Notes: generated by a model from the letters alone, not told the origin. Numbered from the stretch's first letter, positions 3,771-10,722 are shown. The stretch: 32,000 bases of DNA from Chlamydiales bacterium (GCA_965261025.1 OZ253438.1:270001-302000); one strand, 5' to 3'. Program-made: numbers and translations.

Positions 3771-3950
3771 GAGGCAACCTGGACTTGATACCGAAGGCTT
3801 GATAGGTTATGAGGGAGAAGGAATTCCAGTTCATCCAGTAAAGACCAACTCTTATCAAAAGTAGTATAAATGGCTTGTAGAATGATTACTACTGGTTATT
3901 ATGGGTCTTTGCTGGAAAAAGTTGTACTTAAGTGCACCATTTTTGCACCA
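3771..3950 (-). repeat. Degenerate copy of the tRNA(CAU) 3' half (anticodon loop to 3' end) plus a shared arm of about 130 bp (repeat R1)
   Basis: 'ggcaacctggacttga...ggttatgag' matches 10651-10690. The remainder aligns with 6960-7090, with scattered substitutions. Confidence 0.8.
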
Positions 3951-4034
3951 GATTTGAGGTGTTATAATTTTTTTTGCTTCTAAATTATTGTATGTGATTC
4001 AATTCTGAACCCCAAAAAATCTTAAGAAGTTCAT

Positions 4035-6170
4035 ATGCGAAAGATAAAGCTATGGGTTCCTCTTTTTATGGTAACTTTAATGCCTTTTTCTTTAGTGCAT
4101 TCAGAAGAGGTATTTTCTCCTATATGTATTTTTTCTAATCCAGAGTTTATAAAATGGAAAGCTCCTAACAATTACGATCAAATTCTAGAACTTTTAGATG
4201 AGATAGAGTCGGATGATTTTGAAAAAAAATATTCTCAAGAAGACTTAGAAAATATCACAGAATATCTCATCTTTTTATCTAGAGAAGGTTTATTGCCTGG
4301 AGAATTTGAAGAAGCCATTGAACTAGAAGAAGACATTCAGGAATTACTTCAGGATAAGGAGTTATATGAACCTACTGGTTTTTCTAAGAATCCTCAAGGA
4401 TATCTAGTTGAATCGGGAGTGTTTTTATTGAATTCTTCTTTTTCTATTACAAACTGTGGTTTTGCTAAGGGATGGAAGAAGACAAAAAAGTTCTGTAAGA
4501 AACACAAAAAGGCAATAATTATAGGGGCTGTTATCGTTGTTGCAGTGGCTGCTGTTACAGTAGCTGTGGTAGTCGCAACTTCGACAAGTGCTGCGTCAGC
4601 AGCGGGGGGTGCAACGGGAGCTGTTGGAGCTGCTGTTTCTGATTCTGGATCAACTAAATCTGAATCCAGTGGAAGACTTTCTTCTAATTCAAGCACCTCT
4701 CAAACATCTTCAAATACTGCTCCAACTTTCCAAGCGGTTATGGAAGATCAGGTCACTTCTTTCAAAGATCACCTCGCTGATGAGAGTTTTTTCTCATCCC
4801 CTGAGGCCGGTCGGGGGCTTTCAGTAGAAGAAACAGGCAGAGTTTCCGGGGTTCTTTTCGCACACGATAGCTTCAATTACTTTAACAGCCAAATTCCAAA
4901 CTATCCTCAGCTTTCTGAGGAGTTGCGTAGTATTAGTTCACACCCTAGCTTTACTTTGCCTCTTGGAGCGATTAATAATCCTGTAGGATTTGGACATCAT
5001 GAGATTGACTCGAAGTTTTCCAGCAACTGCGGGGCAACATTCTCAGATCCATCTAAAGAAGTAAACATTGACGCCCTTTCCTATCAGATACGAGGAGAGA
5101 CAGCGCGTTATTATGGATATTATGGTCAGGCAGTGAATGACTTTAGCAAAGCCATTAGCATGAATCCAACAGATCCTATGCCCTATCTACAAAGGAGCGT
5201 CTCTTATTTTGATATGGGTCAATATAATGAGTCTTTCGAAGATTTTCGGAAATTTACTACTCAAATTGAGAAGGTGCCAGAAAAGATCCCATTTTCGACT
5301 CCAGAATTTACTCTTGGATTTGCAAAAGGGCTTCCGAAAGGAATCTATGAATCCGGAAAAGGGGTTATGTTATTTCTTGGGGATTTGATTACCCATCCCA
5401 TTCATACTTCAACACAGATGTATGAAGCGCTTTCAACACTTGCTAGTTTGGCTCGTAACGATGAATGGGGTGTTATTGGTGAAGTATTATCTCCAGAAAT
5501 TCACCAATTGATTACCCAGTGGGATACTCTTCCTTCAGATGAAAGAGGAGAATTAGCTGGATATGCGTTTGGAAAACATGGAGCAGACATAGTAGTCCCT
5601 GGAGCCGCAGCCAAAATTGCAAGTAAGAGTGTAAAGAGTGCTAGAGAGCTAGTGACCATTTTAAAAAATCTCCAAATAGCTGAAGAAACAATTGTGCTCG
5701 AAACTGCTGCTGGAATTGGAAACACAGCTAGAGCAGGAGAAATCTTAAATGCTGGCAAAACAAGCGCATTTCTCGGAGAAGAACTCGGGTTCACTGCAAA
5801 GGAAATGGGACAACTGCAAAAGACTGGAAAATTGGAAGGCGCAATTAACAGTCTTTTGGATAGATTAGTCTCCCAATCAGAAAGCGAGGTATTCAAAGCT
5901 GCAATTAGCAAAGACAGCCATGTGAAGATGGTAAGAGACTATCTCTCAAAACCAGCTAAAGAGGTCCAAAAGGGAATCAAAAGCTATGAAAAACAAATAG
6001 CCCTTCACCAAGAAAAAATTGCAAACCCGTCAAAGTTCATCCCCCACTGGGATAAGCTACATCCGGAAAGACAGCAAGCTTTAATCAATAAAAAATGGCC
6101 AGCTGAGATACAATGCTATACTGAACAAAGAAATATCCTACAATCAATTCTAAATGAAAGGATTAAATAA
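4035..6170 (+). CDS. Polymorphic-toxin-like protein: signal peptide, acidic domain, TM helix, Ser-rich linker, conserved TPR-containing core, and a variable C-terminal module (5838-6167)
   Basis: 711-aa ORF. The N-terminus 'MRKIKLWVPLFMVTLMPFSLVHS' is signal-like. The TM helix is 'AIIIGAVIVVAVAAVTVAVVVA'. The core is near-identical to 8612-9789, and the C-terminal 110 aa are unrelated to the paralogue. Confidence 0.6.
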   Translation: MRKIKLWVPLFMVTLMPFSLVHSEEVFSPICIFSNPEFIKWKAPNNYDQILELLDEIESDDFEKKYSQEDLENITEYLIFLSREGLLPGEFEEAIELEEDIQELLQDKELYEPTGFSKNPQGYLVESGVFLLNSSFSITNCGFAKGWKKTKKFCKKHKKAIIIGAVIVVAVAAVTVAVVVATSTSAASAAGGATGAVGAAVSDSGSTKSESSGRLSSNSSTSQTSSNTAPTFQAVMEDQVTSFKDHLADESFFSSPEAGRGLSVEETGRVSGVLFAHDSFNYFNSQIPNYPQLSEELRSISSHPSFTLPLGAINNPVGFGHHEIDSKFSSNCGATFSDPSKEVNIDALSYQIRGETARYYGYYGQAVNDFSKAISMNPTDPMPYLQRSVSYFDMGQYNESFEDFRKFTTQIEKVPEKIPFSTPEFTLGFAKGLPKGIYESGKGVMLFLGDLITHPIHTSTQMYEALSTLASLARNDEWGVIGEVLSPEIHQLITQWDTLPSDERGELAGYAFGKHGADIVVPGAAAKIASKSVKSARELVTILKNLQIAEETIVLETAAGIGNTARAGEILNAGKTSAFLGEELGFTAKEMGQLQKTGKLEGAINSLLDRLVSQSESEVFKAAISKDSHVKMVRDYLSKPAKEVQKGIKSYEKQIALHQEKIANPSKFIPHWDKLHPERQQALINKKWPAEIQCYTEQRNILQSILNERIK

Positions 6171-6414
6171 AATTATGGAAGATGAGAAATATAAAAGTTA
6201 TATTATAGATTTAATATCCATAATTAAAAAACAAGCAAAAGAAGCGAAAATAGAAGCAGATCATCCAAAAGAGGCGTGTGAGAGCTTTAATAACGGCTAT
6301 CTTATGGCATATCACACAGTGATTGAATTTATGAAGAATCAAGCCGAAGTTTTCAATATCGACCAAGAAGATATTGGTTTGGCTGACATCGAACCAGAGC
6401 GTGATTTACTTTGA
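6154..6414 (+). CDS. Small acidic protein, putative cognate immunity or partner of the upstream C-terminal module
   Basis: 86-aa ORF overlapping the toxin stop; an alternative ATG lies at 6175. Its position and size fit an immunity gene. No homology was verified. Confidence 0.45.
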   Translation: MKGLNKIMEDEKYKSYIIDLISIIKKQAKEAKIEADHPKEACESFNNGYLMAYHTVIEFMKNQAEVFNIDQEDIGLADIEPERDLL

Positions 6415-6527
6415 TCTACCAAATATTAAAATTGTCCTAGCCAGAGCTTCACTTGACAAACGCTACTTATTTGTAATAGGCAAAACTTTATTTGACATTT
6501 TTAAGAAAACAACGGGAATAGCATTAA

Positions 6528-6572
6528 GGTTCAGATCAGCCGCCTCTCCGAGCGGCTGGGCTGATCTGAACC
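6528..6572. other. Strong GC-rich hairpin (14-bp perfect stem)
   Basis: ggttcagatcagcc (6528-6541) is the reverse complement of ggctgatctgaacc (6559-6572). There is no canonical U-tract on the + strand. Confidence 0.6.
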
Positions 6573-10209: not shown

Positions 10210-10211
10210 TC

Positions 10212-10562
10212 TTGAAACTTAATGAAGAAGATAAAAACTATATCCTGCAGGAACACCTAAAGCATATCTCTTGTATAGCCGATAAAGAATATCAAAAAAG
10301 AGTTTGGATAAATGGAGAAGGTCCTCAAGTGGATAGTTTTGAGGATACTGTTTGTGACTTTTTTACAACCTGTGACACTATTTTAGAGAATTATAAGGAC
10401 TTTAAGGTCACTGGCAAACAATATGATGTTTTAAAGCTCTTCCGTGATCGGTTCAGGGTTTTTTCAGATAAAAACAACCACCCTCATGAGTTCATAGATT
10501 CCCCAGAATGGGAACAAATTATGCGATTGGCAACGGAAGTACTAAAAGAGTTTAACTACTAA
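10212..10562 (+). CDS. Small protein, putative immunity or partner for the orphan C-terminal module
   Basis: 116-aa ORF starting at a TTG 2 nt after the toxin stop, with GGAGA about 7 nt upstream. It is unrelated to 6154-6414. Confidence 0.5.
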   Translation: MKLNEEDKNYILQEHLKHISCIADKEYQKRVWINGEGPQVDSFEDTVCDFFTTCDTILENYKDFKVTGKQYDVLKLFRDRFRVFSDKNNHPHEFIDSPEWEQIMRLATEVLKEFNY

Positions 10563-10640
10563 ATAGTTGAAGAAACACTTGTGCTGGAAACTGCTGCCGG
10601 AATTGGAAACACAGCTAGAGCAGGAGAAATCTTAAATGCT
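10561..10640 (+). pseudogene. 80-nt stub of the toxin conserved region (encodes 'EETLVLETAAGIGNTARAGEILNA')
   Basis: Ungapped hand alignment to 5674-5753 gives 4 mismatches in 80 nt. It ends where the tRNA flank 'tataaagatgggg' begins. Confidence 0.8.
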
Positions 10641-10648
10641 TATAAAGA

Positions 10649-10722
10649 TGGGGCAACCTGGACTTGAACCAGGGACCGACGGGTTATGAGTCCGCTGCTC
10701 TAACCAACTGAGCTATTGCCCC
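10649..10722 (-). tRNA. tRNA with a CAU anticodon. Elongator tRNA-Met type; a lysidine-modified tRNA-Ile2 identity cannot be excluded.
   Basis: The reverse complement GGGGCAATAGCTCAGTTGGTTAGAGCAGCGGACTCATAACCCGTCGGTCCCTGGTTCAAGTCCAGGTTGCCCCA folds as a cloverleaf. It has a 7-bp acceptor stem with G1-C72 paired, a GCTC/GAGC D stem and a CCTGG/CCAGG T stem. CCA is not encoded. Confidence 0.9.

Follow-up and report, generated by a model that had tools for sequence, protein, structure and literature searches.

How did two incomplete copies of a tRNA gene come to lie in direct orientation behind the intact gene, each joined to the same stretch of DNA, in a region where no integrase gene is found? 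The question arises from positions 3681-10722 of a 32,000-nucleotide stretch of a Chlamydiales bacterium genome (GCA_965261025.1 OZ253438.1:270001-302000), which was analysed as a whole and is referred to below as the window. The source contig measures 1.42 Mb. The G+C content of the window is about 37% and the best matches of the encoded proteins are found in Parachlamydiales, Simkaniaceae and other environmental Chlamydiota. The intact gene, a tRNA(CAU) on the minus strand (10649-10722), is the sole tRNA called by ARAGORN and by Rfam (RF00005, 69 bits) and represents the attL-side core that anchors the array. Two partial copies of its 3' half (10649-10690 by alignment) are present on the same strand. 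R2 (6913-6960) is the junction core between two islands, A (3771-6912, between R1 and R2) and B (6913-10648, between R2 and the tRNA). The more degenerate R1 (3771-3820) is the distal core of island A. An earlier note on this DNA had described the repeats and attributed them to serial integration. In the present analysis, 3681-10722 is probably a decayed tandem array of small islands derived from tRNA(CAU)-specific tyrosine-integrase elements.

The intact gene and its two direct partial copies were confirmed by ARAGORN, Rfam, a 16-mer count and alignment. The 16-mer GGCAACCTGGACTTGA, which belongs to the 3' strand of the acceptor and T stem, occurs exactly three times in the 32 kb (3773, 6915 and 10652) and in one orientation, with 0.03 copies expected from shuffled sequences. 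R2 was located by alignment, blastn and profile search, and R1 by alignment and profile search; R2 is not called as a tRNA by ARAGORN or Rfam. The mismatches of R1 fall in the acceptor and anticodon-stem parts. A three-way alignment places the boundary of identity exactly at the anticodon loop, as the earlier note had stated: both copies track the tRNA from the 3' terminus as far as GGTTATGAG, which is the anticodon loop CTCATAA read in reverse complement, and diverge at the very next base. R2 also extends into the 3' flank. Together with this flank (6901-6955) it matches 10638-10690 with 91% identity (blastn, E 1e-12), which includes about 12 nt of flanking sequence, GCTTATAAA. No further copy of the core or of the arm described below, degenerate copies included, was found by profile search in the 32-kb window.

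R1 and R2 have a variant T arm in common, ACTTGATACCGAAGGC as compared with ACTTGAACCAGGGAC in the tRNA. It contains two extra bases and the T stem is broken (3788-3800 and 6930-6942). Thus, the two copies are not independent decay products of the resident tRNA half. The variant, TGATACC[G/T]AAGGCC, recurs elsewhere, with T for G in four partial copies of two other assemblies (loci L009, L041, L049 and L063), and locus L092 carries yet another T-arm variant. Among the matches listed of the genome scan described below, it never occurs in an intact tRNA. It is found with different flanks and different arms and is tied strictly to neither flank.

Behind both partial copies lies a common arm. The unit of core and arm at 3769-3949 is 89% identical to that at 6911-7090 over 181 nt (blastn, E 4e-62), and a 30-mer derived from the arm has exactly two copies in the window, with none expected. 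Arm copy 1 (3821-3954) and arm copy 2 (6961-7095, 89% identical to copy 1) are both of the attP type and belong to a class designated GGAG. The earlier note had proposed to look for the arm elsewhere and next to integrases. The GGAG arm was found in 14 other loci, and integrase-bearing elements with the same core and arm class are present in CAISYW010000054 and CAYWDE010000005. About 135 nt can be aligned between the two arms of the window and these 14 loci of other genomes, where the arm is always attached to a tRNA half. The similarity stops after two or three TGCACC repeats with a spacing of about 11 nt (three in arm 2, at 7064-7090; 3921-3949 in arm 1), and the sequences beyond are unrelated. 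The cargo behind the GGAG arm varies and includes restriction-modification-like genes, dehydrogenases, transporters and toxins. Conservation of the arm while the cargo right behind it changes suggests an attP arm with protein-binding sites, for which the TGCACC repeats are candidates. Scans of viral contigs gave no match to the variant core or the arm, and hence no sign of a phage origin; the metagenome scans gave no match to the arm subclass of the window.

Could the 180-nt unit instead be the promoter or leader of a toxin gene, copied during the shuffling of polymorphic toxins, with an incidental likeness to a tRNA? The arm does lie directly upstream of a toxin gene both at R1, where the gene starts about 80 nt further on, and in locus L095 of another assembly. 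There, the same core and arm precede the same toxin N-terminus (87% over 766 nt), and housekeeping genes occupy the opposite side. The locus of the window also contains orphan toxin fragments of the sort typically seen in arrays of polymorphic toxins. However, the toxin loci L001-L003 (GCA_964212665, GCA_041652275) lack the tRNA(CAU), the core and the arm, which shows that toxin genes of this family do not generally have the unit as their leader. The same class of arm precedes unrelated cargo in 13 other loci and a HicAB pair directly after arm 2 at R2. The unit invariably includes a tRNA half, and an integrase adjoins it in other genomes. Together these findings largely refute a leader origin, which is hardly credible. 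A consensus scan for promoter-like sites found no more of them than in shuffled sequences, with one weak site at 6997-7024 within arm 2, and does not bear on the question. Nor is the repeat a dispersed element unconnected to tRNA genes, an outcome that the earlier note had named as speaking against its reading: it is tied to the tRNA half in other genomes and has no extra copy in the window.

As the earlier note had stated, the islands contain no integrase, excisionase or transfer gene. The profile of the cognate integrase, searched against the six-frame translation of the 32-kb window, found nothing (best E 0.04), and the open reading frames (ORFs) of the islands have no recombinase, excisionase or transfer domain in Pfam. 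Genes for conjugation or mobilisation were not seen anywhere in the window. A tblastn match to an integrase remnant at 6729-6878 (E 0.028) was rejected because it covers residues 179-231, which does not fit a gene starting beside the core, and because it disappeared in the profile search.

The integrase is found in relatives. Species-representative genomes were scanned with the pattern GGCAACCTGGACTTGA-N(12-18)-GGTTATGAG, which returned at least 117 stretches; the counts given here refer to the 119 sites among the matches listed. Nearly all matches are in assemblies of Chlamydiota, or in assemblies labelled Verrucomicrobia or unclassified. Fifty-five sites extend into the 5' half and are intact tRNAs; the remaining 64 are partial copies. 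The partial copies end at or just after the anticodon loop and are followed by one of a few recurrent arm sequences. The dominant neighbour is a single cluster of proteins of about 360 aa, encoded on the 3' side of the core at a distance of 30-350 nt and transcribed away from it. This cluster is a phage-type tyrosine integrase (Pfam PF00589, E 1e-26, and Int_N). It is present at 25 of the 55 intact and 26 of the 64 partial sites, that is at 51 of 119.

Some sites of the scan depart from this arrangement. In L005 (CAWHDP010000002 at 1.29 Mb) a unit of integrase, core and arm lies hundreds of kilobases from the intact tRNA, and OY970364 has four partial copies (L006, L013, L014 and L020) with no intact tRNA among the matches listed. 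Such sites have the look of attP-like sequences that have not recombined and lie within larger elements, or of arrays that were rearranged. In one assembly, three intact tRNA copies (L040, L112 and L115) are present. L040 and L112 (CAYZHU010000001), which are separated by about 3.9 kb, have different D loops (ACCACTGAG versus ACCAACTGAG). It may be that some elements carry a whole copy of the tRNA, or that two CAU tRNA paralogues share one 3' half.

Two or more cores are present in at least 22 assemblies, and direct arrays on the 3' side of the tRNA occur within single contigs, of which the following are examples. CAYWDE010000005 has two cores 7.5 kb apart and CAWBNS010000009 two cores 25.7 kb apart, each with an integrase at both cores. 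In CAVWWT010000001, three cores are separated by 11.7 and 14.0 kb and an integrase is present at the tRNA only. CAISYW010000054 contains a 12-kb island with an integrase at the tRNA and the GGAG arm at the far end. Versions without an integrase are an 8.4-kb island with the T-arm variant of R1 and R2 in its core and the GGAG arm in PFAD01000008 and a 1.9-kb remnant in JAPLSW010000041. Given these arrays, the architecture of the window is one instance of a common pattern, and its lack of an integrase is not unusual.

These observations can be accommodated by the following course of events. The attP of the element would consist of a tRNA copy from the anticodon loop to the 3' end together with some downstream flank, with the integrase gene on that side. 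On its other side the conserved arm of about 135 nt, ending in the TGCACC repeats, would follow. In the orientation of the window, an integrated element would then read flank, tRNA 3' half, arm, cargo, integrase, short arm, tRNA 3' half and tRNA 5' half. Integration would restore the tRNA and displace a tRNA half with the arm to the far end of the element. Entry of a second, related element at the restored tRNA would give the order flank, R1 and arm, island A, R2 and arm, island B, tRNA, with the younger island proximal to the tRNA. Later deletions would have stripped the integrases and most of the integrase-side arm, one of them fusing an 80-nt toxin fragment to the tRNA flank. The outcome would be two integrase-less cassettes, resembling cis-mobilizable elements (CIMEs), with polymorphic toxin and immunity genes, HicAB and gene fragments. 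The order of events, two integrations in place of one duplication, the deletions and the position of the crossover are what we infer from the arrangement.

The alternative is a single integration followed by tandem duplication in situ, through unequal homologous recombination of the tRNA core (attL) with the displaced copy (attR), and by divergence. In that case the C-terminus of the toxin and its immunity gene would have been swapped later, the 5' part of toxin 2 would have been replaced by HicAB, CAT and RibD sequences, and deletions would have occurred. The two islands are indeed alike in the arm (89%), the toxin backbone, the T-arm variant and the flank GCTTATAAA. R2 looks like the middle junction expected of recombination between attL and attR, with a tRNA-type flank on one side and the arm on the other. 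The toxin paralogues are 92% identical over 1183 nt (4655-5837 and 8607-9789). Their offset is 3952 nt and that of the repeats is 3142 nt, both as given by the earlier note and confirmed by blastn. That note had concluded from the unequal offsets that a single segmental duplication was ruled out, a conclusion that does not hold. A single block, 7096-8606 with HicAB and the CAT and RibD fragments, stands in place of 3955-4654 and the copies are otherwise collinear. This one replacement accounts for the difference of 810 nt, so the offsets do not decide between the two accounts.

Other features of the sequence speak against duplication. R1 and R2 have diverged from each other about as much as R2 has from a copy in another genome. 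When R1, R2 and L095 are compared at variable sites, R1 agrees with R2 at 18, R2 with L095 at 16 and R1 with L095 at 8; the identities are 86-89% for R1 and R2 and 85-88% for R2 and L095. Since R1 and R2 are no closer than R2 and L095, and R1 is the most decayed, the comparison fits an older distal and a younger proximal island. Furthermore, the left breakpoint of the supposed replacement is an exact module boundary: the cargo of island B leaves that of island A exactly at the end of the conserved arm, where modules change in all other genomes. Positions 6415-6882 of island A have no counterpart in island B (blastn), and in other genomes this tRNA is the site of independent arrays with separate integrases. 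Duplication in situ is unlikely. Of the serial integration proposed in the earlier note, the part that stands is that the repeats are att scars of related elements with the tRNA 3' portion in attP, as indicated by the integrase at 51 of the 119 listed sites, the arm in 14 loci and the arrays elsewhere; the choice over tandem duplication is the less certain part.

Several points weigh against serial integration by elements of this family. The toxin segment of 1183 nt that islands A and B have in common is also expected from a tandem duplication. With no integrase in the window, the tie to the integrase family is one of att-sequence homology only. The window reaches no unambiguous host flank on the 3' side, where the left flank of R1 may be either the ancestral downstream flank (B') or an element end (P'). 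Locus L092, which has an R1-type flank beside its tRNA, also holds a distal arm copy 3.9 kb away. No close relative of this genome was present in the collections scanned. Finally, a crossover at the anticodon loop predicts that R1 is the former functional tRNA half of the host, yet R1 and R2 carry the non-functional T-arm variant.

This last point concerns the earlier claim of anticodon-loop sublocation. The boundary of identity does lie at the loop in all copies, but a crossover there is not proven and the T-arm variant argues against a simple exchange of this kind. The variant suggests that either the crossover took place nearer the 3' end, in the invariant TGGGGCAACCTGGACTTGA, or gene conversion homogenised the copies. 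In most other arm classes the loop is followed by TCCG, which preserves the whole anticodon stem-loop. This is not so in the GGAG class, and the sublocation class is therefore not secure for the arm class of the window. Cores within each array of other genomes are identical and give no information on the crossover position.

The cargo of island A is dominated by toxin 1 (4035-6170, plus strand), a protein of 711 aa with a signal or transmembrane (TM) region, TPR repeats (Pfam TPR) and a variable, polymorphic-toxin-like C-terminus. It has 184 homologues in Chlamydiota that cover 48-100% of the query, one of them with PF15542; the range of coverage is wide because the C-termini vary. By sequence comparison, toxin 1 appears to belong to a Chlamydiota-wide family of about 700 aa, with a signal/TM region, TPR repeats, a conserved N-terminus and middle part and a variable C-terminus, which behaves in the manner of polymorphic toxins. 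A small ORF follows each gene of this family. Behind toxin 1 this is an immunity-like ORF of 86 aa (6154-6414, plus strand), whose counterpart behind the closest toxin homologue, in L002, is 94% identical (tblastn); it has no match in Pfam.

The cargo of island B begins, directly after arm 2, with a toxin-antitoxin pair on the plus strand (7192-7805), HicA at 7192-7380 and HicB at 7380-7805 (Pfam PF07927, PF15919 and HTH_3). Two pseudogene fragments follow on the minus strand, a truncated chloramphenicol acetyltransferase (CAT; 7907-8194, 86 of 205 profile positions in Pfam) and a truncated RibD_C/DHFR-like gene (8191-8571, Pfam). Toxin 2 (8607-10209, plus strand; blastn) is a 5'-truncated paralogue of toxin 1 that has lost about the first 206 codons and has a different C-terminus. 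No named toxin domain was found in Pfam for the C-termini of toxins 1 and 2. An immunity-like ORF of 116 aa (10212-10562, plus strand) lies behind toxin 2 and is 47% identical to an ORF beside a toxin-related gene in L002. Next comes an 80-nt toxin fragment (10561-10640, plus strand), derived from the conserved region in front of the variable C-terminus and matching 5674-5753 with 95% identity.

This fragment is fused to the short flank 3' of the tRNA (10633-10648, TAAATGCTTATAAAGA), which resembles the flank of R2 (repeat family; blastn, 91%). The junction sequence shows that the two are joined through the microhomology ATCTTAAATGCT / ATCTAATGGCT, and 11-22 nt of element-side sequence are left beside the tRNA. 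The flank may be a remnant of the element side (P') or of the downstream flank; in intact relatives the integrase lies beyond the equivalent position. The 80-nt fragment is probably the scar of a deletion that took a third toxin module, the integrase and most of the arm.

Such losses bear on the idea that the islands are intact, non-autonomous, CIME-like cassettes that an integrase elsewhere in the 1.4-Mb genome moves in trans. CIMEs are known to be mobilised in other bacteria (PMC5704250), several integrase copies lie away from the tRNA in other genomes, one example being MFD04780.bin.1.32 with six cores, and both arms of the window keep the motifs conserved in the family, the TGCACC repeats included. 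However, the integrase-side arms are down to 11-33 nt, R1 is degenerate and several cargo genes are pseudogene fragments. Intact cassettes of this kind are very unlikely here.

The 30 nt to the left of R2 (6883-6912, AATGACTGTTATCTAATGGCTTATAAAAA) match, with the core included, sequences of L039, L083, L092, L096 and L097 with 85-89% identity over 73-85 nt (blastn). In these loci the homologous sequences adjoin the tRNA or partial copies. The stretch is a class-4 flank, as is the flank to the left of R1 (3681-3770; blastn 72-74% over about 138 nt, E 1e-9 to 2e-12, and flank clustering). The class found at R1 sits directly 3' of the intact tRNA in L083, L092 and L097, and beside partial copies with three other arm classes in L070, L078 and L096. 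The R1 flank contains a terminator-like hairpin on the minus strand (3744-3761, terminator scan). A pair of CTGACA motifs with a spacing of 7 nt (CTGACA-N7-CTGACA, 3693-3711) is also held by this class. Positions 3681-3770 could be the ancestral downstream flank (B') or the P' end of an older, third island.

The two islands counted in the earlier note, A and B, are both present, but two is probably an undercount. The left flank of R1 and an N-terminally truncated gene of the APH family next to it (2941-3639, plus strand; Pfam APH profile positions 56-238) suggest the end of a third, older island. APH homologues (48%, tblastn and tblastx) are neighbours of the integrase in L014 and L024, within islands at this tRNA. 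By this likeness, the APH fragment probably belonged to the cargo of an older island that has lost its integrase, and the array probably extends to the left of R1. Further left, Pfam matches indicate a nucleotidyltransferase (181-510), a DUF1016 fragment (726-1040), an MFS transporter (1102-2322) and a fragment of a DDE transposase (2481-2720). The whole of 1-3770 is a mosaic of genes that are likely to be acquired or decayed. Genes homologous to those for the nucleotidyltransferase, DUF1016 and APH are found near cores in L099, L013, L014, L024 and L070.

The 5' side of the tRNA is of a different nature. Host backbone genes for MFS, DUF1207, MYG1 and HEAT proteins occupy 11596-17164 on the plus strand (Pfam, tblastn and tblastx), and a DUF493 gene (Pfam) is also present on this side. 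The four genes occur in the same order beside the tRNA(CAU) in many Chlamydiota genomes, with tblastn matches in 20, 26, 12 and 7 loci, respectively, and the 5' flank is syntenic in L083, L092 and L097 (tblastx). On the 3' side there is no conserved neighbour except the integrase among the matches listed of the scan. Thus, the 5' side of the tRNA is fixed and the 3' side is variable, and all acquired-looking genes lie on the 3' side. At 19393-23205, downstream of glycosyltransferase genes, the window encodes a histidine kinase (HisKA) and a protein of 771 aa with three receiver domains and Hpt, which are unrelated to the islands.

ARAGORN labels the gene at 10649-10722 as tRNA-Met. Its G1-C72 pair shows that it is not an initiator. 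Its anticodon arm and T arm resemble those of the E. coli ileX tRNA-Ile2, which has a lysidine-modified CAU anticodon, and the gene may be either elongator tRNA-Met or tRNA-Ile2. The predicted anticodon stem contains an A31-C39 mismatch.

What the locus offers is an anatomy: the bounds of the acquired DNA, a fixed and a variable side, and an explanation why toxin and immunity genes, HicAB and fragments of resistance genes are located there. Beyond the window, the sequences compared indicate that one tRNA(CAU) is a recurrent integration site across environmental Chlamydiota, used by a single integrase family with few classes of attP arm and leaving many integrase-less remnants. A description of the phylum-wide use of this tRNA or of its att arms was not found in the limited literature searched. 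A more far-reaching proposal sees the tRNA(CAU) as a cassette platform on which phylum-wide integrases stack att-bounded cassettes. The arm would then be the upstream region of the first cargo gene, the cassettes of the window would be exchangeable in trans and the variant T arm would be under selection. This is clearly unlikely. If it were true, the T-arm variant might shift the crossover away from the anticodon loop or stabilise cassettes against excision. The att signatures seen at the sites of the scan would permit precise mapping of islands in fragmented metagenome-assembled genomes and would be of use for studies of chlamydial genome plasticity. The conserved arm, the integrase family common to environmental chlamydiae and the unexplained T-arm variant deserve notice; current understanding is not overturned.

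The structure of the window is of an ordinary, known kind, combining tRNA-targeted islands, tandem accretion and CIME-like decay. Sublocation classes of the att sites of tyrosine integrases in tRNA and tmRNA genes were reportedly set out by Williams in 2002. At tRNA islands, integration splits the gene, the element restores it and a displaced fragment marks the far end (PMC4383910). The Islander collection contains 125 tandems of at least two islands and 2083 islands with anticodon-centred sites, which, together with T-stem sites, make up the two main classes (PMC4383910). The window agrees with such islands in that an intact tRNA stands at one end and the far end is marked by a displaced 3' fragment in the same orientation, with identity from the anticodon loop to the 3' end, and its relatives have a PF00589 integrase beside the tRNA and tandem arrays. 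It differs in that it has no integrase, and Islander-type criteria would therefore reject it. Its fragments have a common T-arm variant, and the GGAG arm lacks the 5' strand of the anticodon stem (GGAG for TCCG).

CIMEs and the tandem accretion of elements of the integrative conjugative and integrative mobilizable types (ICE/IME) are said to have been described by Pavlovic et al. in 2004 and Bellanger et al. in 2011. CIMEs have lost integration and transfer genes and keep the flanking att sites, and their stacking with newer elements is known as accretion (PMC5704250). Likewise, the islands of the window have no integration or transfer genes, and related autonomous elements in other genomes use the same att site. 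Of the flanking att sites, the cores and the arms on one side are conserved, and the attL-side arms are largely deleted. The host belongs to an obligate intracellular lineage. The likeness to CIMEs is one of sequence organisation.

Repeated tRNA 3' ends are reportedly also a feature of Prochlorococcus islands (Coleman et al., 2006). At the ssrA gene of Dehalococcoides, serial site-specific integration is reported to leave several direct 3'-end repeats between which the cargo varies (PMC3146451). Target genes, integrases and hosts are different in both cases, and the likeness is one of description. Among chlamydiae, a 100-kb island flanked by direct repeats is known in Protochlamydia amoebophila (PMC548262), and Protochlamydia naegleriophila has islands at tRNA-Thr, tRNA-Leu and tRNA-Met (PMC5010888). 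One of these, PnaD_GI4 of strain Diamant, is an 11.3-kb island by tRNA-Met that encodes an integrase and a putative chloramphenicol acetyltransferase, is conserved in part between strains and has mobility genes undergoing decay (Bertelli et al., 2016; PMC5010888). The CAT fragment of island B recalls this island by description. Unlike the present account, the PnaD_GI4 paper maps no att sites and describes neither arms nor arrays. In its cargo, the window resembles polymorphic toxin loci of the CdiA/Rhs/MafB type, with a full toxin gene, a 5'-truncated paralogue with a different C-terminus and a small ORF, and an 80-nt fragment. In contrast to those loci, its modules are distributed over separate att-bounded islands and do not form one contiguous orphan array.

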